64,000 bases of DNA from Dehalococcoidia bacterium (GTDB taxonomy: Bacteria; Chloroflexota; Dehalococcoidia; Lucifugimonadales; JADFKI01): positions 2,261,813-2,325,812 of the forward strand of contig OY730226.1 in the NCBI GenBank assembly GCA_963422525.1. Direction: 5' to 3'. Of the stretch, positions 22,521-46,606 are shown piece by piece. The stretch's first letter is position 1. Every line of letters starts with the position of its first letter. A model generated the notes under the pieces. That model did not search any database, was not told where the DNA came from, and worked only from the letters and a program-made list of their open reading frames with translations. The position numbers and the translations under genes were made by a program.

Positions 22521-24815
22521 TCACGGTGTTACTGTCGGCACGGGTGTTGCTTCCGGCGTGGCAGTGGGCGCAGGCTCAGGCGTGGCAGTGGACGCAGGCT
22601 CGGGCGTGGCAGTCGGCGCAGATTCGGGCGTGGCCGTCGGCTCAGGCTCGGGCGTGGCAGTCGGCGCAGGCTCAGGCGTGGCAGTGGGCGCAGGCTCAGG
22701 CGTGGCAGTGGACGCAGGCTCAGGCGTAGCCGTCGGCTCAGGCTCAGGCGTAGCCGTCGGCGCAGGCTCGGGCGTGGCAGTCGGCTCAGGCTCAGGCGTA
22801 GCCGTCGGCTCAGGCTCAGGCGTGGCAGTGGGCGCAGATTCGGGCGTGGCAGTGGACGCAGGCTCAGGCGTAGCCGTGGGCACAGGCTCAGGCGTAGCCG
22901 TGGGCACAGGCTCAGGCGTAGCCGTGGGCACAGGCTCAGGCGTAGCCGTGGGCGCAGGCTCAGGCGTAGCCGTCGGCTCAGGCTCAGGCGTAGCCGTCGG
23001 CGCAGGCTCGGGCGTGGCAGTGGGCGCAGGCGTAGCCGTCGGTTCAGGCTCAGGCGTGGCAGTCGGCGTAGGTTCAGGCGTTGTCGCCAGACATTCTTGG
23101 TCATTCGTCGCTTGGACGCCGTCTGCGGAGACGGACGCGGCTATTCGCAGCATCAGCAGGTCGCCGCCTTGCCAGGGTTGTTCGCATACTCCCCAAACGA
23201 AGGTTGCGATGTCCTCTTCGCCCGCGAACTCGATGGCGTCTTCGAAGAGTAGGCGCAGAGCGACCGAGCCGTCGAGGGCGATGAAGTCCAAGCGGTGGCT
23301 TGCGAGGTCCGGTAAGTCGTCCTCCACTTCGAGCGCGAGTTCGACCTGACCGTCCCGCCAGCGCAGGGCTTCAATTGCCGCCTCACGGTCATCGTACTCG
23401 AAGTCCGTGGGTTCTAGCGCGCCGTTGGCATTGTCCGCGCCCACAGCCGCGCCAATTGCCACAGGGTCGAAGAACGCTTCGTGCAGCGCGCCCGTTTCCG
23501 GAGAGAATGTGTACCTCTCTGCTACTGGCGGAACTGCATAGTCACACGGAATTTCCTCGGGCAGTTGAGCATGCCAGTAAATTTGATAGAGTCCGGATGG
23601 TAGGGGACGTACTGCCTTAAGATGAACATCGTATGCAGTAATTTCACTGCGTGTTGCCCAGTAGTCGGGTGTGATGACTTGCCCTCCCTCCAGTAATAAG
23701 ATTTGGAAGAACCTTGCATCCTCTCCCGTCAGCCACTCCTTTACATATCCTAATCCACCAAAGCGAGCGCTTCTGTCTATTATTGAATTAGCGGGTTGCC
23801 CGGAAGGGAATGGACCTAGCTCAGTTTGACGGGAAGAATAGGCTTCCTCTTCGACTTCCATGTATCTGCGGAGAAAGCGTTCACCGCGGAGCTTCGCCTC
23901 AATACATTCTCTGTAACCTTCGATGCCTTTTCCCTCTCTCAGTAGCGCATCCATCGCATTGATGCGTTCGCGCAAGTCCTCGATTGAAAACTCTGTGGGT
24001 TTATCAATCTCATCTGCAAGAAGTGAAGCGGATGCGACTCTGGCGGATTCGGTGGACAATGACCTATCGAAGCTCTCGACGGCGGGAAACCATCCGAGAG
24101 CCGTATTGTTCCCTCCCCATCCGTGTGATGAGTTTAAGGTGTCTGTCACAAATGAATATATTCTCTCTTCGTTTGACGCTTCGCGTGAGATCTCATCCGG
24201 ATACCTCACAGTTTTAAGGAAGACTACTGCTTCTCGGTTATTGAGTATAGGGTTTCGCAGGGCAAGTTCGCTCTCTGCGGAAGTTTCGGCATCTTCGTCG
24301 CTAAGTACAGTACGGGCGTATGCCATATCAACGGTTATTTTGGAGGCGCCGCTTCCCTTGAGGTATTCAATTACCTCGAAGTGGGTCTGTATCAGCGGAA
24401 TGTAGCCGGTTTGTCCGTCATTGCGCTGGGCCTTCAAAGTATCCACAAACGAGTCTGTTGGGCGCACGATAGCTATCACATCCGCGAAGAATATATGCTC
24501 ATTAAGTGAAAGGGGGCCGTCGAGATAAGTCTTAGGAGCTGAGCTCGCAGCTGCTGGGACTAAGGCCGGCGCTGATCCGGTGGACGGCGCAGGTGACTTT
24601 GACACTGACTTCGCCATTCCTGTTGTTGATGTGGTGGGCAGGGTAACCGCCGCTGAAACATCGGAAGTTGCTAGCCCATCCTTGGCGGTTGTGGGCTGGG
24701 GTGAGTTGCTGCAAGCTGCCATCATTATGACGACGAAACAGAACAGCGCCAGGATATATGCCCAAGATAATCGCGCGGTCAGAGTTACTTCCCTTCCGAG
24801 CACGACGAAGGTCAT
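22521..24815 (-). CDS. membrane-anchored / lipoprotein-like protein of unknown function with a C-terminal (TATPEPxP)n tail (copy A)
   Basis: 764 aa. ATG is preceded by TAAGGAG. N-terminal hydrophobic helix ends in a lipobox-like MAAC. The non-repeat body of about 540 aa recalls no family I know. The last 190 aa or so are about 22 octapeptide units of TATPEP(A/E/V)P. Confidence 0.75.
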   Translation of the reverse strand: MTFVVLGREVTLTARLSWAYILALFCFVVIMMAACSNSPQPTTAKDGLATSDVSAAVTLPTTSTTGMAKSVSKSPAPSTGSAPALVPAAASSAPKTYLDGPLSLNEHIFFADVIAIVRPTDSFVDTLKAQRNDGQTGYIPLIQTHFEVIEYLKGSGASKITVDMAYARTVLSDEDAETSAESELALRNPILNNREAVVFLKTVRYPDEISREASNEERIYSFVTDTLNSSHGWGGNNTALGWFPAVESFDRSLSTESARVASASLLADEIDKPTEFSIEDLRERINAMDALLREGKGIEGYRECIEAKLRGERFLRRYMEVEEEAYSSRQTELGPFPSGQPANSIIDRSARFGGLGYVKEWLTGEDARFFQILLLEGGQVITPDYWATRSEITAYDVHLKAVRPLPSGLYQIYWHAQLPEEIPCDYAVPPVAERYTFSPETGALHEAFFDPVAIGAAVGADNANGALEPTDFEYDDREAAIEALRWRDGQVELALEVEDDLPDLASHRLDFIALDGSVALRLLFEDAIEFAGEEDIATFVWGVCEQPWQGGDLLMLRIAASVSADGVQATNDQECLATTPEPTPTATPEPEPTATPAPTATPEPAPTATPEPEPTATPEPAPTATPEPVPTATPEPVPTATPEPVPTATPEPASTATPESAPTATPEPEPTATPEPEPTATPEPAPTATPEPEPTATPEPASTATPEPAPTATPEPAPTATPEPEPTATPESAPTATPEPASTATPEPAPTATPEATPVPTVTP
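22548..23080. repeat. 24-bp in-frame tandem repeat array (about 22 units) encoding the TATPEPxP tail of copy A
   Basis: Plus-strand unit is approximately GGCTCAGGCGTGGCAGTGGGCGCA, repeated head to tail with point variants. One unit is shortened to 18 bp. Confidence 0.9.
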
Positions 24816-24825
24816 TGTTCACTCC

Positions 24826-25332
24826 TTAGTGTGATGTGTGGTTGCCGTAGAGTGCCCTCATAGATTTCTTGTCATTGTCGTTGAGGTTTTGCGTATTATG
24901 GCCTATTCTGGCATTCATAGCGTCGCTCGGGTCGGAACTATGCCAAAGACCGGCTGCATGCCCAAATTCGTGTGCCATGTAAATGGGCATGTACAGAAAT
25001 CTAGAGAGTCTACGAGCATCAGCGAAGTTATTAGTCCACTGGTAGGATGTACCTCCCGAATTAGGCTGATACTCGAAGTGCAGTTTTTGTTGCCTGTTGA
25101 AGTGTGGATAAGTATCTCCTGATCCGTACACCACGCAGGCGATGTTCCCCCTACCGCAGTGGTCTGTGCCGCTGCGGCTGTAGTACCCCTGTACGACCAC
25201 ATCGGCGGATGAGGTCGAAGAGATTTTTGTGAACGACATGCCAGTCCCTGCGCCGTTCCACTTGCCGGCGCCTTGGTTAGTCGCCACTTTGTACTTGTCG
25301 ATGGTCTGCTGCACCAGCGTGACGTTCACCAC
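24826..25332 (-). CDS. metzincin-type zinc metalloprotease domain ORF (short paralog; possibly the surviving end of a decayed gene)
   Basis: 168 codons with HEFGHAAGLWH (HExxHxxGxxH). The C-terminus ...YGNHTSH parallels ...YYNHSPH of the large paralog. The only start is GTG with no SD. The stop sits directly before the SD of the next gene. Confidence 0.45.
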   Translation of the reverse strand: MVNVTLVQQTIDKYKVATNQGAGKWNGAGTGMSFTKISSTSSADVVVQGYYSRSGTDHCGRGNIACVVYGSGDTYPHFNRQQKLHFEYQPNSGGTSYQWTNNFADARRLSRFLYMPIYMAHEFGHAAGLWHSSDPSDAMNARIGHNTQNLNDNDKKSMRALYGNHTSH

Positions 25333-25545
25333 CAGCGGGCTGGCGAAGGCGTATGAGTAGCAATCGGCTTTGATGTCGGCGTCGGGACTGACGCGGAAAT
25401 GATGCTGAAGGTGTAAGTTCGCAGCAGAATGTTGGTGGAAGCGCGGCGCAGCTCCACTGTACCTATATCAGACTAACATCTGGCAAGATACACAGTCTGG
25501 CCATCATATCGCTCACGCTCATCGTAATCAGTTCTCGAATAATTT
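25333..25545 (-). pseudogene. decayed 5' remnant of a protease gene, homologous to 29340-29560
   Basis: Hand alignment to the large paralog. The remnant reads ...YDGQTVYLARC*SDIGTVELRRASTNILLRTYTFSIISASVPTPT...; the intact copy reads ...NGQTVYLAGCQSGIGTVELRHASTNALLRTYTFSISSASVPAPT.... The in-frame TAG at 25473-25475 replaces CAG. The frame then ends (ARWW*) out of frame with the 168-codon ORF. Confidence 0.6.
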
Positions 25546-25584
25546 CTCGGTTGAGCGGCAGAGCCATTTTGTGGAGGTTATTTT

Positions 25585-27714
25585 TCAGCCTGAATTATAT
25601 CGCAAAATCGCTGATGGCTCGGGCGTGGCAGTCGGTTCCGGCGTGGCAGTGGGCGCAGGCTCAGGCGTAGCCGTCGGCTCAGGCTCAGGCGTGGCCGTTG
25701 GCGCAGGTTCAGGCGTGGCAGTGGACGCGGGCTCAGGCGTAGCAGTCGGCACAGGCTCAGGCGTAGCAGTCGGCGCAGGCTCAGGCGTGGCAGTGGATGC
25801 AGGCTCAGGCATAGACGCCGGCTCAGGCTCAGGCGTGGCAGTCGGCGCAGGCTCGGGCGTAAATGTCGGCGCAGGCTCAGGCGTGGCAGTCGGCGCAGGC
25901 TCGGGCGCTGCCGTCGGCGCAGGCTCAGGCGTGGCCGTCGGCTCAGGCTCAGGCGTGGCCGTCGGCTCAGGCTCGGGCGTAGGCTCAGCCGTTGTCGCCA
26001 GACACTCGAGGTCATTCGTCGATTGGACGCCGTCTGCGGAGACGGACGCGGCTATTCGCAGCATCAGCAGGTCGCCATTCTGCCAGGGCTGTTCGCATAC
26101 GCCCCAAACGAAGGCTGCGATGTCCTCTTCGTCCGCGAACTCAACGGCGTCTTCGAAGAGTAGGCGCAGAGCGACCGAGCCGTCGAGAGCGATGAAGTCC
26201 AAGCGGTGGCTTGCGAGGTCCGGTAAGTCGTCCTCCACTTCGAGCGCGAGTTCGACCTGGCCGTCCCGCCAGCGCAGGGCTTCAATTGCCGCCTCCCGGT
26301 CATCGTGCTCGAAGTCCGTGGGGTCTAGCGCGCCGTTGGCATTGTCCGCGCCCACAGCATCGTCAATTGCCACAGGGTCGAAGAACGCTTCGTGCAGCGT
26401 GCCTGAAGGCGCGAAGACATCCACAACAAGTTCCTCCGATGTCCTCAATCTATCAGGATAGGCATTGCACGGAACATACTTGGCGTTCAGCGAGTTGATA
26501 TAGAAACGATAGTCACCCATAGGAAGGGGGCGAAGATTGCCGACCAGCGCTATGTCATCTACTATATGGAAGAGATGAGCGTCTTCTCCTTCCAGCCAAG
26601 CCTCTATATCGAAATCGTTCGCATATGTTATATCGGAGGGACCAAGATAGTCCGGAATCTGAAAGGGCCTTGTGCCGCGTGCGAACACCGTGTCTGCATG
26701 TGAGCCGGATGCCAGCTGGTGGTCATAAGTTTTAGTCCTGTAACCGTATTTAGAGGATGCGTTATGGTGCTCCACTTCTCTGTACCGTCTGTACTTTTCA
26801 TAGACACACCGGCTGTACTCCTCAGAACCGTCTCCCGCATCAACTTCCTCTTGCAACTCTGCGATGAGACCCTTCAGCCGTGAAAGCGTTATAGTAGATG
26901 AGTCGCCGCCCGTGCCCAAGGCTTTGTTGAAGGCGCTGTCCGCAACTCGGTAGTCTATTCGCTCCGCATATGATTCGCCTTCTACCCGCTTAGCGCCTGT
27001 GAGAAAACGCTGCTCGTCGCTATTCCCGTCGGCAGATGCAGGTGAGGCAATCTTGTCAACGCCTTCGATTTCATCGGCAGACGGAAGCCACTTCTTGGCG
27101 TCTGGGCTGTCTATGGCGTAGCCGTTGGTAGAGTCCCAAGGATTTGCCGTGCCCAGTTCATAGCGATCCGGCTGCTGCGTTGTGCTTACTACAGTCTGAT
27201 CCTTTCTCAGGAAGACTATCGCCTCCCTGTCGTCCCAGAAGGTATCGTGAGTTTCGGTGAAGGCTTCTCCGAACGCGAACGCTCCGACCTTGCTTTGGTA
27301 GATATACGGGTCGCTATGAACGATGCCCACAATTTCACCGCTGCCTCCTCCTTTCAGATACTCAATCACCTCAAAGCGGAACTCCAGCGCGTTAGCATAT
27401 ACGGTATGCTGGACCCACTCACCGTCCTCTTCCTGACCTGATAAATGGAGAGTTTCCACATTCGGGGACACAGAGAGCAGCCTAACCCTGGCTACGACAT
27501 CAGATTCCAAGATGCGTTCCTCAAGACTAATGGGGCCGCCGTAGTATGGTTGAGCGCCCAAGCCGCCTGATGGCAGTCTGTACAACAATGCAAAGCCAAT
27601 ATCGGCGGCGACGCCACTGAATATCATCACTCCAATGACGACCAAGAGAATAGCCACCGCAGCCGAGATTTTATACACGCGGCGGCTTATTTTGGTTCTC
27701 ATTCTGCGAAGCAT
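25585..27714 (-). CDS. membrane-anchored protein of unknown function with a C-terminal (TATPEPxP)n tail (copy B)
   Basis: 709 aa. ATG is preceded by GGAGG. N-terminal signal anchor (ISAAVAILLVVIGVMIFSGV). The body is homologous to copy A throughout: weakly at the N-terminus and nearly identically over the last 130 non-repeat residues or so. The tail has about 15 octapeptide units. Confidence 0.75.
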   Translation of the reverse strand: MLRRMRTKISRRVYKISAAVAILLVVIGVMIFSGVAADIGFALLYRLPSGGLGAQPYYGGPISLEERILESDVVARVRLLSVSPNVETLHLSGQEEDGEWVQHTVYANALEFRFEVIEYLKGGGSGEIVGIVHSDPYIYQSKVGAFAFGEAFTETHDTFWDDREAIVFLRKDQTVVSTTQQPDRYELGTANPWDSTNGYAIDSPDAKKWLPSADEIEGVDKIASPASADGNSDEQRFLTGAKRVEGESYAERIDYRVADSAFNKALGTGGDSSTITLSRLKGLIAELQEEVDAGDGSEEYSRCVYEKYRRYREVEHHNASSKYGYRTKTYDHQLASGSHADTVFARGTRPFQIPDYLGPSDITYANDFDIEAWLEGEDAHLFHIVDDIALVGNLRPLPMGDYRFYINSLNAKYVPCNAYPDRLRTSEELVVDVFAPSGTLHEAFFDPVAIDDAVGADNANGALDPTDFEHDDREAAIEALRWRDGQVELALEVEDDLPDLASHRLDFIALDGSVALRLLFEDAVEFADEEDIAAFVWGVCEQPWQNGDLLMLRIAASVSADGVQSTNDLECLATTAEPTPEPEPTATPEPEPTATPEPAPTAAPEPAPTATPEPAPTFTPEPAPTATPEPEPASMPEPASTATPEPAPTATPEPVPTATPEPASTATPEPAPTATPEPEPTATPEPAPTATPEPTATPEPSAILRYNSG
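25617..25990. repeat. 24-bp in-frame tandem repeat array (about 15 units) encoding the tail of copy B
   Basis: Same 24-bp unit family as 22548..23080. Confidence 0.9.
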
Positions 27715-27767: not shown

Positions 27768-30225
27768 CTAGTGCGGGCTGTGGTTGTAATAGACCTGCCG
27801 TATGTAGGCTTTGTCCCTGCTCGGTATGGAGCTGACATCGGAGTTATCACTCGGTCCCATCAGGTAGTCGGAATAACCTGTGAGATCAGAGTGGTAAAGG
27901 TCGGTCAGTCCAGCCGTGTGGCCAAACTCGTGCATCACTACACCCGGGGCGTACGTCCAGAAATAAACATATTTCGCTTCAAGCCCAGGAACATCTTGTC
28001 TTTCCATATCATTTAGCACCTGATTGTGCTTAGAGGCGTCATCGGTCCAAAAGTACCCGGTGAATTTTTTGGTATTAGAGTTATATGACCAAGCGGGTTC
28101 TTCGATGACCATATACAGGGACTGCAGATGATCGCCGACTACCGGCAGCCACTTGAGCCAAGTGGTTGCAAAGCCGAGTATGCCGTTCGGCTTGACGCAG
28201 GCATAGGCATTTCCGCAGTGCGGTCGCGCCAAGACGGTCACAAGCCATGGATCACTTTTATCCAAGAAGATGCCTTTGCCGCCTCTCGCGACGTTTATCA
28301 ACACATGTTCGCCGTCGGTGTTCTTGTCGGTCCCACCAACAAGACACTCGTTGGCCTTGTTTCTGGTGCTGTCGTCCTTGCAGAACAGCACTCTCGGATT
28401 CGTGTTGGCAGTCGCGCTGTTCCAGGCGCGTGCGGCAGAAGATATAGCCGCCGGAATAACGGTGGCAGGGTCTTCCACCGGGTTAGAAGGCTGTGGGGCC
28501 GGCCTCAGCGGCTGGATTGTGCCTATCTTGTACTTGACGGTATGGTCCTGCTGATGTCCCAACCAAGGGATGCGTCCCTTTATCGTTAACGCAAAGCTTC
28601 CCGGGCTACGGCTCGACACGGCGACAGTGTAATCTCCCGTTGCCTCGATAATATCTGAACCAGTGTAGTGCGCACGTCCGGATGTGCGCGTGCCGCTGCG
28701 AATTGTCGCGTTGCCGCCATTCGTCACATCCATGGTCACATGCGCCGATTTTATTAGATTGAATCTGTAGTAGCGAACATAGCGTTTGGAACGTACTACA
28801 CCCATTGTGCAGCCACTGTCCCAGTTGCCGTTGGCGCTAATCTGGTATCCGCTAGCGCCTGTGCTTGAAAGGTCGCCTAGATAGACGGCATTACAATTGG
28901 CTGTAGGCGTAGGCGCAGGCACGGGTGTAGGGATGGGGATGGGAGCAATGGTTGAGATACTTATCCTGAGGTTGAAGTCGCCTCTTGCGCCGGAATTATA
29001 GGTGGTGGCTTCAATCGTGTAAGCGCCGGGCGCGAGGATCTGAGATATTCGAGAGTTCTTGCCGTTGGAGTCGTCGTTTGAAGCCACGACCGTGCCGTTC
29101 TTGCCGTATCCTTGCATTAGGTACAGGTATGGGTCGGTAGATGATGTGAGGTCAATCTGAACATCGGAGCGGTTATCCAACCAGAAGGTATAGAAGCGGG
29201 CGTACTTGCCGCTGTTCCTCTCGGACAGGCATGAACTGTCCCAAGCGCTGATGCGGGTGGTTTTGCCACCCAGAGTTCCCAGTGGATTGACGCAAGGGGT
29301 AGACGGTGGCGTATGAGTAGCAGTCGGGGTAGGCGTCGCTGTATCAGTCGGCGCTGGGACTGATGCTGAGCTGATGCTGAATGTGTAAGTTCGCAGCAGA
29401 GCGTTGGTGGAAGCGTGGCGCAATTCCACCGTACCTATACCCGATACCCGACTGACACCCAGCAAGGTACACAGTCTGGCCATTGCTGCGGGTTTTGGTA
29501 TCGTTTCTCTCCGCTCCGTCAGCGCAGTAGCTGCCACTACCGCTAGTGCTTATCTCCACATTGAGCGGGGCGCTGTCAGGGTTGGCGACCACCTTGACTC
29601 TTTCGCTGGAATTGACGGTGAACCTGTGCCAGCTGCCGTTGGGTTGGAAGTTGACGGTCGAAGGGTCAGGCGAAAGGTACGCGGAGGTGGTTCTAGGTAT
29701 TGGCGTCGGGACCGATCCGCCACCGCCTGATGAGGAACTTGTCAGCGTGATGACAATATCGTAATCTGTGCCGTCCCGCAGCGGATTGGACGATATGTTG
29801 TGGAACTCGAACTTCTGCGTTATGCTGGGATTGCTCTCACAGTAGTCATCGGTGCGCCATGGGTTGTTGCTCCATTGGCTGTCTGTTCTTGAAAAGGTGC
29901 GCGTGCCTATCTGTAGGCTTTTGAAATCCGACGGCTTAAGACACTCCTCAAATCGAAACTCAATCTCATCTGCCGAGTCGTCCCACTTGATGTATTTTAT
30001 GGTGTAGGTTCTGCCATTGTGTCGGAATGTGCGATCGTCTATATCGCCGAATTTGCCGTGCTCGTAGCCGTATTCGTCGTCTCCGGGTTCTCGCTCGGCT
30101 TCGAGTGTGGCGCTCCATGTTACTGAAGCCTGCGCGGCTGTGATGCGGACATTCAGAACCCAAAACAGCAACATTGCTACGATGATTACGCCACTGATGT
30201 AAGTGAGACGAAGCTGTAAGGGCAC
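27768..30225 (-). pseudogene. large secreted multidomain metzincin protease, split by a +7 frameshift
   Basis: Domain order: signal anchor, unknown domains, two PPC-like beta-sandwich repeats, then an HEFGHTAGLTD protease domain. Two track ORFs (29344..30225, 293 aa with signal anchor and AAQA/S site; 27768..29537, 589 aa) overlap in different frames. Removing one copy of a 7-bp tandem duplication at 29438-29451 joins them (...TVYLAGCQSGIG|TVELRHAS...) into one 816-aa ORF. The downstream part has two roughly 100-aa repeats with the pre-peptidase C-terminal (PPC) pattern (RFYTFWL...DLTS..DPYLYL...AYTIEATTY) and HEFGHTAGLTDLYH. Confidence 0.7.
29438..29451. repeat. perfect 7-bp tandem duplication (TACCCGA x2 on the plus strand) causing the frameshift
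   Basis: Read directly: 29438-29444 TACCCGA and 29445-29451 TACCCGA. The paralogous remnant near 25465 has exactly 7 nt fewer at this point. Confidence 0.9.
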
Positions 30226-30692
30226 TATTGTCCTTTCTCGCGATATGGGGAGGGGCTTGCGCTCCGGTAGAGCGCGCTTTTTCGATTTAGAGAATGCTTT
30301 GCATTCTTATCAGCGGCAACATTTAATGTCAAGTTCATGTTGAGTCGATTGCCTAAGGCAATGACTTCACCGTCGGAGTCCGCGCTGAATATCTGCGCAA
30401 CAGGTGGTTCCTCCGGGACAGAGTCGGGCAATCCCTTCATCCACTCGGTTGCTTGCTCCGTCGCGTCAGGGTTGGACAATATGTAACTCCCATCTTCGCT
30501 CTGCCGTTCACCAGGCAGAGGTGTAGAAGCGACTTCCTCATTAGCTTGCTGAGATGATATCGACACCGATACTACCTCTTCGCCAGTCAGCTCATCCGAC
30601 GCCGGCGGTATGCACGCAATCAGGATAAACGCCGCAATGACACTATTCGCCAAAGAGGTGATGCCGCAACTGGCAGGATGAGGACAGAGCAT
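30225..30692 (-). CDS. chimeric or truncated lipoprotein paralog (duplication scar; possibly not functional)
   Basis: 155-aa ORF. Residues ~24-114 (from the IAC of the lipobox, ...IACIPPASDELTGEEVVSVSISSQQANEEV...SDGEVIALG) are near-identical to the N-terminal part of the 31920..32675 product. The flanking N- and C-terminal residues are unrelated to it. Confidence 0.35.
   Translation of the reverse strand: MLCPHPASCGITSLANSVIAAFILIACIPPASDELTGEEVVSVSISSQQANEEVASTPLPGERQSEDGSYILSNPDATEQATEWMKGLPDSVPEEPPVAQIFSADSDGEVIALGNRLNMNLTLNVAADKNAKHSLNRKSALYRSASPSPYREKGQ
30352..30622. repeat. 271-bp near-identical segmental duplication, copy 1
   Basis: Hand alignment with 32341..32611 gives equal lengths and 5 mismatches by my count. 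Confidence 0.85.
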
Positions 30693-31919: not shown

Positions 31920-32675
31920 TTACTTATCCGCAAGACGGAATGTCCAGTTAGACATCACCGAATCGCCTCCGCCAACCAACCTATCGCCCTCACGCTTCGG
32001 TGGAACAATCCACATAGCAAAGACCGATACATACGGGGACAGGAGAACCTCCGGCGGGATACTGTGATACTCTACAAAGCCATCCGGCGTGATTCGCTCA
32101 CACGGATTACGGTCAGAGCGCGTACATTCATAAGATATTACTTTTTCACCTGCGATAGGCCAATGGGTATCAGAATCCACCCTGCTAACGCCCGTCACTA
32201 TAACCATATGGGTACGCGAACCGGTTAGAAAACGGAGAACCCGTTTCTTGCCCAATACCACCGGCTCCGGCCATGTCAGAATGGGCAAGTCGGGTCTAGG
32301 TAGATTCCGAGAAGTATCCCAGTTCACATAGTAAGGAATACCTAAGGCAATGACTTCACCGTTGGAGTCCGCGCTGAATATCTGCGCAACAGGTGGCTCC
32401 TCCGGGACAGAGTCGGGCAATCCCTTCATCCACTCGGTTGCTTGCTCCGTCGCGTCAGGGTTGGACAATATGTAACTCCCATCTTCGCTCTGCCGTTCAC
32501 CCGGCAGAGGTGTAGAAGCGACTTCCTCATTAGCTTGATGAGATGATATCGACACCGATACTACCTCTTCGCCAGTCAGTTCATCCGACGCCGGCGGTAT
32601 GCACGCAATCAAGGTGAGCGGGAAGACAGGCGCAACCAACTCGAGTAGCCTTTTCGCGGCAGTGCGAAACAACAT
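31920..32675 (-). CDS. lipoprotein of unknown function
   Basis: Start trimmed to ATG 32675 (MLFRTAAKRLLELVAPVFPLTLIACIPP, lipobox LIAC), 20 nt after the upstream stop. An acidic Glu/Ser-rich linker is followed by a C-terminal domain of about 130 aa with no family I recognise. Confidence 0.6.
   Translation of the reverse strand: MLFRTAAKRLLELVAPVFPLTLIACIPPASDELTGEEVVSVSISSHQANEEVASTPLPGERQSEDGSYILSNPDATEQATEWMKGLPDSVPEEPPVAQIFSADSNGEVIALGIPYYVNWDTSRNLPRPDLPILTWPEPVVLGKKRVLRFLTGSRTHMVIVTGVSRVDSDTHWPIAGEKVISYECTRSDRNPCERITPDGFVEYHSIPPEVLLSPYVSVFAMWIVPPKREGDRLVGGGDSVMSNWTFRLADK
32341..32611. repeat. 271-bp near-identical segmental duplication, copy 2
   Basis: See 30352..30622. Confidence 0.85.
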
Positions 32676-32694
32676 AGTGGGTTCCTTGGGCGCA

Positions 32695-33252
32695 TTATTG
32701 ATTATTGCACTGAATATTCCTAGGCACACTGGTAGTCTCTGCAGTTGCAGGGTTGAATCCGGGCAGATAGATGACATAGCCCCAACCTGTACCTCTATAC
32801 CATGTATTTCTACACAAACCATTGGACCTAGCTACGCCTGTCTTGACACCGAAGCCTTCAAAATCTGTATGGCGTGGGTCATCACTGGATGGAATTTCCC
32901 AATAACCTATCCCTTCATGATTGCTTGACATCAATCTAGCATAGTGAGCCATTTCTGCTACTATGAAGCCGCATCTAGCGGTAACTTTAGTATTCACACG
33001 ATGCTCATATCCGGACGTTGTGGATTTATGAGGTCGATCGGCAGTCTGTCTACAGCCTACCAGCGCCCCATAGTAGTCTGAAGCGGGATGAATTATAGAT
33101 TTCAAAATTCCACCAGACGAAACGGGGGCTAAGGCATATCCGCTGTTTGCCGGATGGTTCACAGATTCAGGCCCATCCGCAAACACATCCAACCGATTCG
33201 CTGAGAGCAAAATTGCGACTGTCAACAGAACTACTGTTATGCGTATAATCAT
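32695..33252 (-). CDS. secreted protein of unknown function
   Basis: 185 aa. Strong AAGGAGG SD. Signal peptide MIIRITVVLLTVAILLSANRLDVFA|D. Four Cys in the mature part. No recognised domain. Confidence 0.6.
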   Translation of the reverse strand: MIIRITVVLLTVAILLSANRLDVFADGPESVNHPANSGYALAPVSSGGILKSIIHPASDYYGALVGCRQTADRPHKSTTSGYEHRVNTKVTARCGFIVAEMAHYARLMSSNHEGIGYWEIPSSDDPRHTDFEGFGVKTGVARSNGLCRNTWYRGTGWGYVIYLPGFNPATAETTSVPRNIQCNNQ

Positions 33253-40648: not shown

Positions 40649-41215
40649 TTAGTCCCGCGCCAACTCACCCTGAAACACACTGTCCAAGTCTATCACCAAC
40701 CCCCCGAGAGTCGCCGAAGTGAAACTCTGACCTTCGCCATACTCGCCCGCAACCTCCAGATTGCCGTCCCGAAGAACCAGCGCCCATAATTTCCGCTCCT
40801 CCGGATCTACAAGCCACATCTCTTTGACGCCATGACGCGCGTATAACTCTCGTTTCTGCGTCCAGTCCCGTCTAACCGTAGAAGGCGACAGTATCTCCAC
40901 CACCAAGTCGGGCGCTCCCTGCACATTCGCAGCCGTGATTATGTCCGCGCGCTCCCTGGAAATGAACAGCAAGTCCGGCTGCACCACATCATGCTCAGTC
41001 AGAACCACATCGACGGGAGCATAGAACACCCAACCCAGCCCCATTTCTTCGACTGCCAGCATCAGGGCGTACAACTTCTTGCTAACCCACTGATGAACGA
41101 TGTAAGGCGCTCCAACCAAAATCAGCTCCCCGTCGATAAGTTCATACCGCTCATCACCCAGCAGGTTCGCGTAATCGTCATAAGTAAGTTTCACCTTCGG
41201 CTTGGCTTGTACCAT
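40649..41215 (-). CDS. Uma2 family (DUF820) PD-(D/E)xK-fold endonuclease, tandem copy 1
   Basis: TYDDYANL..ERYELIDGELI, QPDLLFI, PDLVVEILSPST..RD...K..LYARHGVKEMWLVDP: the Uma2 pattern. Confidence 0.85.
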   Translation of the reverse strand: MVQAKPKVKLTYDDYANLLGDERYELIDGELILVGAPYIVHQWVSKKLYALMLAVEEMGLGWVFYAPVDVVLTEHDVVQPDLLFISRERADIITAANVQGAPDLVVEILSPSTVRRDWTQKRELYARHGVKEMWLVDPEERKLWALVLRDGNLEVAGEYGEGQSFTSATLGGLVIDLDSVFQGELARD

Positions 41216-41226
41216 CTTCAGCCTCC

Positions 41227-41790
41227 CTAACTCGCCAACTCACCCTGAAACACACCGTCCAAGTCTATCACCAACCCCCTGAGAGTCGCCGAAGTGAAAC
41301 TCTGCCCCTCGCCATACTCGCCTGCAACCTCCAGATTGCCGTCCCGAAGAACCAGCGCCCATAATTTCCGCTCCTCCGGATCTACAAGCCACATCTCTTT
41401 GACGCCATGACGCGCGTATAACTCTCGTTTCTGCGTCCAGTCCCGTCTAGCCGTAGAAGGCGACAGTATCTCCACCACCAAGTCGGGCGCTCCCTGCACA
41501 TTCGCAGCCGTGATTATGTCCGCACGCTCCCTGGAAATGAACAGCAAGTCCGGCTGCACTACATCATGCTCAGTCAGAACTACATCGAACGGAGCGATAT
41601 AGATCCATCCCAATCCGTCGTCTTCTGCCGATAGCATCAACCGAAACAGCCTTTTGACTGTCCTCTGATGAATCTCATTCGGCGACCCAACCAAAATCAA
41701 CTCTCCATCGATAAGTTCATACCGCTCGTCGCCCGACAGGTTCGCGTAATCGTCATAAGTAAGTTTCACCTTCGGCTTGGTTTGTACCAT
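41227..41790 (-). CDS. Uma2 family endonuclease, tandem copy 2
   Basis: Same motifs as copy 1. An 11-nt spacer containing GGGAGG separates it from the neighbour. Confidence 0.85.
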   Translation of the reverse strand: MVQTKPKVKLTYDDYANLSGDERYELIDGELILVGSPNEIHQRTVKRLFRLMLSAEDDGLGWIYIAPFDVVLTEHDVVQPDLLFISRERADIITAANVQGAPDLVVEILSPSTARRDWTQKRELYARHGVKEMWLVDPEERKLWALVLRDGNLEVAGEYGEGQSFTSATLRGLVIDLDGVFQGELAS

Positions 41791-41801
41791 CTTCAGCCTC
41801 C

Positions 41802-42365
41802 CTAACTCGCCAACTCACCCTGAAACACACCTTCCAAGTCTATCACCAACCCCCCGAGAGTCGCCGAAGTGAAACTCTGCCCTTCGCCATACTCGCCCGC
41901 AACCTCCAAGTTGCCGTCCCGAAGAACCAGCGCCCATAGTTTCCGCTCCTCCGGATCTACAAGCCACATCTCTTTGACGCCATGACGCGCGTATAACTCT
42001 CGCTTCTGCGTCCAGTCCCGTCTAGCCGTAGAAGGCGACAGTATCTCCACCACCAAGTCGGGCGCTCCCTGCACATTCGCAGCCGTGATTATGTCCGCAC
42101 GCTCCTTGGAAATAAACAGCAAGTCCGGCTGCACCACATCGTGATCAGTCAGCACCACATCAACCGGCGCGAAGTAGAGCCATCCCAATCCGTCGTCTTC
42201 TGCCGATAGCATCAGACGAAACAATCTCTTCCCAAGCCTTTGATGAATCAGGTAAGGCGCTCCAACCAAAATCAACTCTCCATCGATAAGCTCATACCGC
42301 TCGTCGCCCGGCAGGTTCGCGTAATCGTCATAAGTAAGTTTCACCTTCGGCTTGGCTTGTACCAT
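41802..42365 (-). CDS. Uma2 family endonuclease, tandem copy 3
   Basis: Same motifs as copy 1. An 11-nt spacer containing GGGAGG separates it from the neighbour. Confidence 0.85.
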   Translation of the reverse strand: MVQAKPKVKLTYDDYANLPGDERYELIDGELILVGAPYLIHQRLGKRLFRLMLSAEDDGLGWLYFAPVDVVLTDHDVVQPDLLFISKERADIITAANVQGAPDLVVEILSPSTARRDWTQKRELYARHGVKEMWLVDPEERKLWALVLRDGNLEVAGEYGEGQSFTSATLGGLVIDLEGVFQGELAS

Positions 42366-44020: not shown

Positions 44021-46606
44021 TTACCCTTCGCGCGCTCGTTCCTGAAGCTCATACAGCCTATTGATAGCGTCTAGCGGCGTCATAGCGGAAACATCCAGCG
44101 CAAGCAGCTCATCTATGACAGGCGACGCGAATCCGAGCAACGGCATCTGCTGTGGCGGCGGGCAGTCGCCTCCTTCTCGGCGCGGCGATGATGCCTTGCT
44201 CCTCAAGCCCCTGCCCTCCTCAAGTTCCGCCAAAACCTCCCATGCGCGGTTGATTACGCTGCTAGGCATCCCAGCAATTCGCGCCACATGCACCCCATAG
44301 CTCCGGTCCGCGCCGCCGGGCGCTATGTTCCGCATGAACACCACCTGCCCCTCGTCCTCAGACACCATTACATTATAGTTGAACGCGCGCGGCAGCAAAT
44401 CCGCGAGTCGAGTCAGCTCATGGTAGTGAGTAGCGAAGAGCGTCTTGCACCCCAACCTCGGGTTATTGTGAATATGTTCCGCCACCGCCCGCGCCAGCGC
44501 CAAACCGTCGTATGTGCTAGTCCCGCGCCCAATCTCGTCCAGCACAATCAACGAACTCGGCGTCGCATGGTTCAATATAGCCGCAGTCTCTACCATCTCC
44601 ACCATGAAAGTCGATTGGCCCATCGCCAGGTCGTCCTGCAAACCCACCCGCGTGAATATCCTGTCGCAGACGCCAATCGTCGCCGACTCAGCCGGCACAA
44701 AGCTGCCTATCTGCGCCATCAGCGCTATGACCGCAACCTGTCGAATGTATGTTGACTTGCCCGCCATGTTCGGACCCGTCAGCAGAATAAGCTGTTCGCC
44801 GCCGCATGAAAGCGTCGTGTCGTTAGCAACGAATTCCCCCGGTGGCAGCATCCGCTCCACGACCGGATGGCGACCCTGCCTTATCACCACCGCGTCACCA
44901 TTATTCAGGACAGGACGCACATACCCATAGCGCGACGCCACCTCGGCAAGCGACGCGAATACATCGATGTTGGCGATAGCGACGGCTGTCCTAAGTATCT
45001 GTTCGGCGTAGCCCGCAATCTGCTGACACACCTGGCGGAACAGCGCGACCTCAATTTCGCCAATCCTATCCTGCGCGTTCAGGATGAGCGATTCGTACTC
45101 TTTCATCTCCGGCGTAATGAAACGTTCGCCGCCCACGAGCGTCTGCCGCCGCACATAGTCATCGGGCGCTTGCGCAAGATTAGAGTTGCTAATCTCGATA
45201 TAATACCCAAACACCTTGTTATAGCCCACCTTGAGCGACCTAATCCCTGTCCGTTCGCGCTCCTTCTGTTGTAGCCGCGCGATGTAGTCCTGGGCATTGC
45301 GCGATGCGCCCCGCACCTCATCCAGGTCAGGCGAGAAGCCCTCACGAATTACCTTGCCCTCCCCCACGGTCAGCGGCGGCTCATCAGATATGGCGCGCTT
45401 CACAAGCTCAATCGCCTCTTTATTGTCGGCGATCCGATCCGCAAGCCATTCTACTTTATCCGAATCGTCGTCCTCACTCAGTATCGCCTTAATATTCGGC
45501 GCCGCTTCAAGACTGAACGCAAGGTTCGCCAAGTCCCGCGGCGTGGCGTTGTAGCCGCGAACCCTGTTCACCAACCGCTCCATATCAGATACCGTTTCAA
45601 GCAGCATGACTACGCGCTCGCGCCTCAATGCGCTGCGATGAAACCACTCCACCGCATCCTGCCGCCGCGTCAGCCGTTCCACATCCAACAGTGGTTGTCC
45701 AAGCCAGCGACGCAGCAGCCGTCCTCCCATAGAAGTCTTGGTGAAGTCCAGCGCCGTGAACAACGATGCGTTGACCGCCCCCCACCGTCCTCCCTCATAC
45801 AGCTCCAGATTGCGGCGCGTCTGCGGATCCAGAGCCATGTACTCCGTCGTCGAATGAGTGTACAGCTTCGTAATCTGGTTGACCGCACCGCGCTGCGTCT
45901 CCGCAAGGTAGTCAACAATAGCCCCAGCCGCCCTTATCGCAAGCGTCTGCCCTTCGCATCCGAAGCTCTCCAGCGACGCCACTCCAAAGCGCTTCAGCAA
46001 GCTCTCACGCGCCCAGTCCACATGGAAAGCGTCCGTCGAAAGCGGCGTCAGCATCACGCCGTCGCCAACTTCAATGTCCGGCTGCGCCTCCGGCGTCAGC
46101 AGCTCCGACGGCGCCAGACGCGCCAGCTCAGCCGAAAGATGCGCCACAGGAAACTCGCTAGTCGCAAATTCGCTCGTCGTAATATCGACCCAGGCAAGTC
46201 CCGCAAACTCGCCCTCCACCACCAGCGCGGCAAGATAATTATTAACCTTCTGCTCAAGCAGCGCGTCCTCGGTGACCGTCCCCGGCGTAACCACGCGCAC
46301 AACTTCTCGGTCAACGATGCCCCTAGAAGTGGCGGGATCGCTCGTCTGCTCGCATATAGCGACTCGATAGCCCTTCTTGACGAGACGCGCCAAGCTCACA
46401 TCTAACGAATGATAAGGAATCCCGGCAAGCGGCACGCGCTGCCCCTTGCCGAACTCGCGCGAAGTCAGCGCAATCTCAAGCTCACGCGAAAGCAGCCGCG
46501 CGTCATCGTCGAAAGTCTCGTAAAAATCGCCCATGCGGAACAGCAGAATCTCATTCTGATGCTCACGCTTGACTCCCAGATACTGCCGCCGTACAGGTGT
46601 AGTCAT
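44021..46606 (-). CDS. mutS: DNA mismatch repair protein MutS
   Basis: LLFRMGDFYETFDDDA, Walker A GPNMAGKST, and DEIGRGTSTYDG. 861 aa. Confidence 0.97.
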   Translation of the reverse strand: MTTPVRRQYLGVKREHQNEILLFRMGDFYETFDDDARLLSRELEIALTSREFGKGQRVPLAGIPYHSLDVSLARLVKKGYRVAICEQTSDPATSRGIVDREVVRVVTPGTVTEDALLEQKVNNYLAALVVEGEFAGLAWVDITTSEFATSEFPVAHLSAELARLAPSELLTPEAQPDIEVGDGVMLTPLSTDAFHVDWARESLLKRFGVASLESFGCEGQTLAIRAAGAIVDYLAETQRGAVNQITKLYTHSTTEYMALDPQTRRNLELYEGGRWGAVNASLFTALDFTKTSMGGRLLRRWLGQPLLDVERLTRRQDAVEWFHRSALRRERVVMLLETVSDMERLVNRVRGYNATPRDLANLAFSLEAAPNIKAILSEDDDSDKVEWLADRIADNKEAIELVKRAISDEPPLTVGEGKVIREGFSPDLDEVRGASRNAQDYIARLQQKERERTGIRSLKVGYNKVFGYYIEISNSNLAQAPDDYVRRQTLVGGERFITPEMKEYESLILNAQDRIGEIEVALFRQVCQQIAGYAEQILRTAVAIANIDVFASLAEVASRYGYVRPVLNNGDAVVIRQGRHPVVERMLPPGEFVANDTTLSCGGEQLILLTGPNMAGKSTYIRQVAVIALMAQIGSFVPAESATIGVCDRIFTRVGLQDDLAMGQSTFMVEMVETAAILNHATPSSLIVLDEIGRGTSTYDGLALARAVAEHIHNNPRLGCKTLFATHYHELTRLADLLPRAFNYNVMVSEDEGQVVFMRNIAPGGADRSYGVHVARIAGMPSSVINRAWEVLAELEEGRGLRSKASSPRREGGDCPPPQQMPLLGFASPVIDELLALDVSAMTPLDAINRLYELQERAREG

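Follow-up and report, generated by a model that had tools for sequence, protein, structure and literature searches.

A 7-bp tandem duplication that splits a secreted matrixin-like protease gene in a Dehalococcoidia bacterium is best read as a recent frameshift

Introduction

In a stretch of 64,000 nt from the genome of a Dehalococcoidia bacterium (contig OY730226.1, positions 2,261,813 to 2,325,812; hereafter the window, in whose numbering all positions are given unless another sequence is named), a gene for a large secreted protease lies on the minus strand as two overlapping open reading frames (ORFs), and a perfect tandem duplication of 7 bp sits where one frame gives way to the other. The locus raises a simple question: is this gene broken, is it switched, or has it been misassembled? 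An earlier note, made from the letters of the window, had left all three explanations open, namely recent inactivation, a reversible slipped-strand ON/OFF switch and an assembly artefact. Here we compare the locus with its closest relatives, describe the protein that it would encode once repaired and weigh these explanations against each other. The best reading of the locus is a real and recent slippage duplication by which the protease gene is inactivated, and we consider it probable. The features at the centre of the question are the following.

29438 to 29451, minus strand: perfect tandem duplication of a 7-mer, TACCCGA twice on the plus strand and TCGGGTA twice on the coding strand
27768 to 30225, minus strand: whole disrupted protease gene, which without one 7-mer has 2451 nt, or 816 codons plus a stop
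29344 to 30225, minus strand: upstream ORF of 293 amino acids with a GTG start, made of 262 native and 31 out-of-frame residues (YRYGG...SPSAD), with its stop at 29344 to 29346
27768 to 29537, minus strand: downstream ORF of 589 amino acids in the +1 frame, which carries the HEFGH motif (from the ORF list)

Results

Removal of one 7-mer restores a single reading frame

On the plus strand, TACCCGA is found at 29438-29444 and again at 29445-29451, between the flanks CCTA and CTGAC. Tandem Repeats Finder reports the same site (29437-29451, period 7, 2.1 copies, 100% match), so the direct tandem is borne out both by the letters and by the program. The earlier note had calculated that deleting one copy would join the two ORFs exactly. 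When a single 7-mer was removed in silico, the 293- and 589-residue ORFs did fuse into the predicted 2451 nt, with the junction YLAGCQSGIGTVELRHASTNALL. The extra copy, aligned as 29445-29451, puts the frame at +1 after Gly260. The downstream frame opens at 29552, and the two ORFs overlap by 206 nt (29346-29552).

The source record holds the two-copy allele itself, where it is annotated as two proteins. One of them, P0122 (293 residues), is the upstream ORF including its out-of-frame tail; the other, P0003 (470 residues), lies on a contig of 2,711,487 bp and is a partial annotation of the 589-residue frame, with a start that falls within the first of two PPC-like domains described below.

Every relative carries a single copy

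Five comparators were available, three alleles of the protease gene and two old remnants. A search with the repaired protein returned P0001 (793 residues; 85% identity, 98% coverage), encoded on locus L001 (ENA ERZ21742353 contig_1) of what we call strain 2. Synteny of this locus with the window extends over window 17483-40292, with 96-98% identity in the flanks. P0121 (821 residues) comes from a different locus of this assembly, L002, and both P0121 and the truncated P0122 belong to the 90% protein cluster of P0001. The third allele, from strain 3 (locus L005, ENA ERZ21742408 ctg4545l), was reached via a neighbouring protein of 279 residues; its contig ends within the protease gene, of which the first 606 codons are covered. 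The two remnants lie in the window and in L001. They are old fragments with several lesions each and therefore serve as an outgroup. The remnant in the window is this one.

25333 to 25560, minus strand: old paralogous beta-sandwich fragment with one unit of the 7-mer and with an in-frame TAG where the Gln codon would be

Within it, the stretch 25375-25472 is 85% identical to 29347-29444. The strain-2 remnant (L001 14583) has the same in-frame TAG, followed by a frame change.

All five comparators have one unit of the 7-mer, at L005 12972, L001 10724 and L002 10814 in the alleles and at window 25466 and L001 14583 in the remnants. The intact proteins run YLAGCQSGIGTVELRH across the junction site, and the repaired junction predicted from the window is the exact sequence found in P0001, P0121 and the strain-3 allele. 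The closest of these is the strain-3 allele, with 98.2% identity over 1900 aligned positions (7-nt gap counted, 27 mismatches), and along these 1.9 kb the 7 nt are the sole indel. The strain-2 ortholog on L001 is 91% identical over the gene and differs by four other internal indels, of 18, 12, 15 and 3 nt, all of them in frame. From the remnant near 25466, which lacks exactly these 7 nt, the earlier note had concluded that the duplication is the derived state, and all five comparators agree. It had also proposed an inspection of orthologs, which might all have turned out to carry both copies; the outcome is the reverse, as each of them carries one. Judged from these alignments, the duplication is derived and unique to one lineage.

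Wider searches added no further relatives. A scan of genome contigs with the repaired protein gave pattern matches, but tblastn confirmed no relative among them, and a protein scan of metagenome contigs yielded no relative. A second close copy from the source contig was not present among the database matches to the repaired protein or in the 90% clusters. In strain 2 the protease gene is present twice, at different loci (L001 10001-12382 and L002 10001-12466), with 98.9% identity between the two overall and 100% identity from codon 200 on. Their sequences point to a recent duplication or to gene conversion.

Taken alone, a 7-mer tandem is near chance level and unremarkable. The window contains eight perfect ones where 3.97 +/- 1.97 are expected, and 4% of the first-order Markov simulations behind this expectation reach eight. 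What gives the tandem in the protease gene its meaning is its position at the frame break, together with its absence from all relatives. Another of these tandems, CAATAAT twice at 32694, was considered as a second recent duplication and rejected, since strain 2 has it too and it is thus old and unrelated.

The frameshift appears young

Apart from the duplication, the 816 codons contain no stop and no frameshift; random substitutions would give stops 3.6% of the time. The strain-3 allele differs at 8 codons before the break (6 nonsynonymous and 2 synonymous changes) and at 16 after it (8 and 8), and these counts give no sign of relaxed selection or of excess change downstream of the break. As divergence is even on both sides and nothing else is broken, the frameshift is young; on these codon counts it is later than most of the ~1.4% divergence from strain 3. 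The corresponding counts against strain 2 (100 nonsynonymous, 58 synonymous) were left unused for dating, being confounded by mosaic recombination, to which we return below.

The repaired gene would encode a secreted multidomain metzincin

The evidence supports the gene product as a secreted, multidomain, matrixin-like metzincin with PPC-like repeats. Its parts, from the N terminus to the C terminus, are listed here.

30127 to 30225, minus strand: signal peptide or anchor, with a hydrophobic core and ITAAQA followed by SV (read from the sequence by eye)
29370 to 29682, minus strand: eight-stranded beta-sandwich, residues 182-283 of the repaired protein (from the model of P0001)
28953 to 29294, minus strand: PPC-like (collagen-binding-domain-like) domain 1 (Pfam PPC E value 3.4e-5, 25.0 bits against a cut-off of 25.9)
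28572 to 28895, minus strand: PPC-like domain 2 (Pfam PPC E value 0.15; tandem Foldseek match to ColG s3a-s3b)
27771 to 28571, minus strand: matrixin-like metzincin catalytic domain, with HEFGHTAGLTD at 27900-27932 and then a Met-turn, YLMG

The GTG start is preceded by GAAAGGA at a distance of 7 nt. In an AlphaFold2 model of P0001, the mean predicted local distance difference test score (pLDDT) is 68.7, with the domains mostly at 80-90, and the model lays out an N-terminal domain, the eight-stranded beta-sandwich (P0001 residues 164-265), two more beta-sandwiches and a C-terminal alpha/beta domain. In Foldseek, the tandem sandwiches of this model (mean pLDDT 69) match ColG s3a-s3b (5iku) with an E value of 2e-8 and the PPC domain 5sv5 with a template modelling (TM) score of 0.76. 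The protein recalls the clostridial collagenase ColG, which has accessory domains of the PPC (PF04151) and collagen-binding kind; in contrast to ColG-type systems, the accessory domains of the protease precede the catalytic domain rather than follow it.

The catalytic domain is related to the matrixins (MEROPS M10A, Pfam PF00413), with which it shares HExxHxxGxx(H/D), the Met-turn and a predicted fold of the MMP type. In a family alignment of 15 sequences, HExGHxxG and the Met of the Met-turn are invariant and the third ligand position is His or Asp; the clade of the protease has Asp in the place of the third His of matrixins. A profile built from the family alignment matches MMP catalytic domains in the PDB (MMP-20, MMP-1) with an E value of 1.7e-8, while a PDB sequence search with the single catalytic-domain sequence gave no match. 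The AlphaFold2 model of this domain (pLDDT 79.4, predicted TM score 0.84) finds MMP-3 and MMP-13 in Foldseek with an E value of 1.4e-5 and TM scores of 0.63-0.68. The Pfam gathering score of PF00413 was missed, the C-terminal 267 residues alone giving an E value of 0.081 and 13.2 bits against a cut-off of 24. Compared with MMPs, the catalytic domain of the protease is ~100 residues longer and stays under the Pfam threshold. Overall, Pfam, Foldseek and the family profile are in line with the domain calls of the earlier note, which had placed a signal anchor on the 293-residue ORF and PPC-like repeats with the HEFGH motif on the 589-residue ORF.

The break lies inside a conserved domain

In the P0001 model, strands run at residues 234-239, 243-251 and 257-265, with a pLDDT of 84-90, and the break falls between the first and the second of them. 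It is thus located in the turn before the last two strands, within a domain that is conserved and confidently modelled, rather than between domains. YLAGCxSGxGTV is a conserved motif at this site, and G243 and Y261 are invariant in this region.

The 7 nt TCGGGTA of the coding strand would have been copied twice in replication, in a small slippage or template-switch duplication helped by 1 nt of flanking microhomology. Seven nucleotides are two codons plus one base, and therefore the ribosome leaves the native frame after Gly260. Past this residue the shifted frame still gives the native Ile-Gly by coincidence, followed by the 31 wrong residues and the stop. From the sequence and the model, the truncated product would retain its signal peptide, its N-terminal domain and, of the beta-sandwich, six strands out of eight; lost are 554 residues, which take in the two PPC-like domains together with the matrixin-like catalytic one. 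The downstream frame of 589 codons lacks a signal peptide, and none of its candidate GTG and ATG starts has a convincing ribosome-binding site. Any product of this frame would remain in the cytoplasm. Loss of the second copy by another slippage event would be feasible in principle, as ordinary reversion and not as the work of a dedicated switch.

The protease heads a variable gene cassette

The protease is the first gene of a cassette array that continues with a partner protein of 709 residues with a Pro/Thr-rich tail, a remnant of an M10 protease and a partner of 764 residues, and the arrangement of this cassette differs between strains and loci. The two partners are paralogous (22521-24815 for the 764-residue protein and 25585-27714 for the 709-residue protein, both on the minus strand), share an N-terminal hydrophobic segment and always accompany the protease. 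Their C-terminal tails, rich in Pro, Thr and Glu, are encoded by a 24-nt repeat present in 22 copies (22555-23081) and 14 copies (25640-25980), respectively; apart from low-complexity 'Cornifin' matches, no Pfam domain was found in either of them.

Remnant cassettes lie between the partner genes, at 24826-25560 on the minus strand of the window, at L001 14583-15248 and twice in L002 (14777-15301 and 17445-17972). In the window, the remnant includes a second ORF next to the beta-sandwich fragment listed above.

24826 to 25332, minus strand: Peptidase_M10 ORF of 168 amino acids, open, in a frame that differs from that of the fragment (Pfam E value 1.2e-10, 42 bits, above the gathering score of PF00413)

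All of these cassettes have one layout, in which the beta-sandwich fragment with the shared in-frame TAG is followed by a frame change and then by the M10 ORF. This ORF is split in L001 and open in the window and at both L002 sites; in the ENA loci it is uncalled.

Divergence between the window and strain 2 is uneven along the protease gene. Nucleotide identity drops to 62-77% over codons 640-800 (window 27771-28300), compared with 94-98% in the rest of the gene and ~98% in the flanks. This mosaic divergence of the catalytic domain suggests recombination with another allele or paralog. The M10 remnants were considered as donors of the mosaic blocks and rejected, with a protein identity of only ~26%.

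Only strain 3 has an insertion sequence (IS) here, an element of the IS5 family of ~840 bp (L005 11285-12122) located 62-75 bp upstream of the protease start. It encodes DUF4096 and DDE_Tnp_1 in three broken frames, has terminal inverted repeats that begin with GAGGGTGTTT and is flanked by a 3-bp target duplication, TAA; the corresponding empty site in the window is at 30287-30300. As circumstantial evidence, this insertion adds to the duplication a second structural change at the gene, of independent origin, in keeping with a locus that tolerates disruption.

Other differences between the strains were recorded farther upstream of the protease. A direct repeat of 300 nt, 94% identical (30332-30631 and 32321-32620), covers the lipoprotein-like N-terminal region of the ORFs at 30225-30692 and 31920-32822; strain 3 also has it, and strain 2 is without 169 bp here. 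At 32695-33252 (minus strand), a hypothetical ORF of 185 amino acids is open in the window, as it is in strain 3, and was not called in strain 2, from which the window differs by 1 nt at 33174; strain 2 may hold there a frameshift or consensus error of its own. Uma2-family genes (PF05685) of 187-188 residues stand three in tandem at 40649-42365 (minus strand), with three in strain 3 and two in strain 2. An Rfam scan of the window gave no matches. Proteins 56-64% identical to one encoded nearby bear the name 'Chloroflexi bacterium', a hint at phylum level that the host is probably a member of the Chloroflexota.

Discussion

Of the three explanations that the earlier note had left open, recent inactivation is now favoured, an assembly artefact is possible but weakened and a reversible switch is unsupported. 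What we describe is an ordinary, recent, lineage-specific frameshift, and an assembly artefact is its main rival. The sequence has the marks of a frameshift pseudogene, since the indel is out of frame and derived, its removal restores the ORF and parts that would be essential are lost. In this it resembles other frameshift pseudogenes produced by short tandem duplications, which likewise show an exact, adjacent, non-triplet copy, are confined to one lineage, have intact orthologs and can revert. The classic example of slippage is the CTGG-repeat hotspot in lacI. The protease site differs from hotspots of this type in that its relatives, with one unit, have no pre-existing repeat.

Several observations weigh against this reading, and most of them would be expected if the organism itself had an intact one-copy gene to which assembly or polishing had added 7 nt. 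The two-copy allele is known from a single assembly and is absent from all five comparators, the 98.2%-identical allele included. It was not found in a second sample, as the 90% protein clusters hold only the fragments of the source itself, and a junction pattern with 0-7 inserted bases had no match in the genome and metagenome contig collections. Exact-protein look-ups of P0003, P0122 and a luciferase-like neighbour of 390 residues likewise led to no further sample with this allele. The gene is mosaic between strains and duplicated in strain 2, with 98.9% identity between the copies, and it is in such a gene that polishing of a mixed population is most error-prone; reads of co-occurring strain variants, misaligned in this hypervariable gene, are a possible route to the artefact. 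Assembly errors account for many of the apparent pseudogenes in bacteria (PMC11017572). Finally, that the gene is functionally dead is something we infer from its sequence. Besides these points, the 816 codons are otherwise fully open, which is how an artefact in a live gene would look. Against an artefact, however, stands the state of the surrounding sequence. When some 35 genes in window 17.5-56.6 kb were compared by tblastn with two sister strains (loci L001, L003, L004 and L005), only the protease was split over two frames. The five 1-nt indels between the window and strain 2 (L001) comprise three in intergenic sequence, one that precedes the probable real start of the E2 gene and one in the hypothetical ORF at 32695-33252; thus, they avoid confident genes (four of the five lie outside), a pattern of polymorphism filtered by selection and not of random consensus error. 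Moreover, an exact tandem copy of 7 nt is not the usual homopolymer-type error of long reads, and the source genome seems to be without a second close paralog from which reads could cross-map, as no other protein of the source contig is among the close matches. We therefore regard an artefact as unlikely on balance, while giving it real weight.

The remaining alternatives accept the duplication and explain it differently. It is tempting to see in it an evolved slipped-strand switch, or contingency locus, that makes a secreted protease phase-variable: the target is a secreted, hypervariable protein, a kind of gene often under such switches, and 7 is not a multiple of 3, so that each change by one unit toggles the frame. 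Haemophilus influenzae indeed uses heptanucleotide tracts for phase variation, and most of the documented heptanucleotide switches have 7 to 38 units (PMC2651432). The tracts of hmw1A/hmw2A and of a TonB-dependent receptor gene in that species resemble the protease site in their 7-nt unit and in the toggling of a secreted or surface gene by a one-unit change (PMC2651432). In contrast to those tracts, which are of such lengths for the most part and vary between strains, the protease site has two units (2.1 copies) in one genome and a single unit, that is, no tract, in every relative, and no copy number besides one or two was seen. In addition, the site of the 7-mer is a conserved structural turn within a folded domain, so that extra units would do damage there even when in frame. 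Seven-mer tandems occur in the window near their chance frequency. Nor does mismatch repair look defective in a way that would favour slippage: the window has an intact MutS gene (44021-46606, minus strand, 861 residues, NCBIfam equivalog with 1037 bits). A dedicated switch is thus very unlikely. We could speculate that the two-copy state is the OFF phase of a low-frequency reversible toggle, that populations would mix ON cells with one copy and OFF cells, and that the strain-3 insertion would reflect recurrent selection for silencing, an idea to which we give equally little credence. A 7-bp target-site duplication retained after the excision of a transposon would also be a real mutation, and mobile elements have been active at the locus, as the IS5-family element upstream of the gene in strain 3 attests. 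That element, however, duplicates 3 bp (TAA) and not 7, and no remnant of an element lies between the two copies of the 7-mer. The excision of bacterial IS elements rarely leaves a clean footprint. Such an origin is highly improbable, and whether the copy arose by transposition or by slippage, the consequence for the gene is identical. Programmed +1 ribosomal frameshifting, or a working arrangement of two proteins, might draw on the 206-nt overlap, anywhere within which a +1 shift restores the frame, and the overlapping ORFs offset by +1 recall prfB (RF2). Unlike prfB, the protease has no conserved shift site, no in-frame stop and no hungry codon, and its split is not conserved, as all relatives have one uninterrupted frame. 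No stop or rare codon is found at the site (AGG occurs 9.4 times per 1000 codons), and by inspection UAU-AGG offers no good +1 re-pairing and no Shine-Dalgarno-like stimulator is evident. Furthermore, the break cuts the beta-sandwich before its last two strands instead of separating domains, and the downstream ORF is without a signal peptide or an evident ribosome-binding site. We find this last explanation scarcely conceivable.

A recent slippage duplication that inactivates the gene thus continues to be the reading that we prefer, and its consequences are modest in scope. For annotation, a single entry, marked as a frameshifted matrixin-like protease gene, should take the place of the hypothetical proteins of 293 and 470 residues; should reads prove to have one copy, the sequence would need correction instead. 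The duplication reveals no new mechanism and opens no long-standing question. Rather, it would provide a small, datable case of gene loss in a fast-evolving cassette of secreted proteases, for which the sister strains give the intact state.

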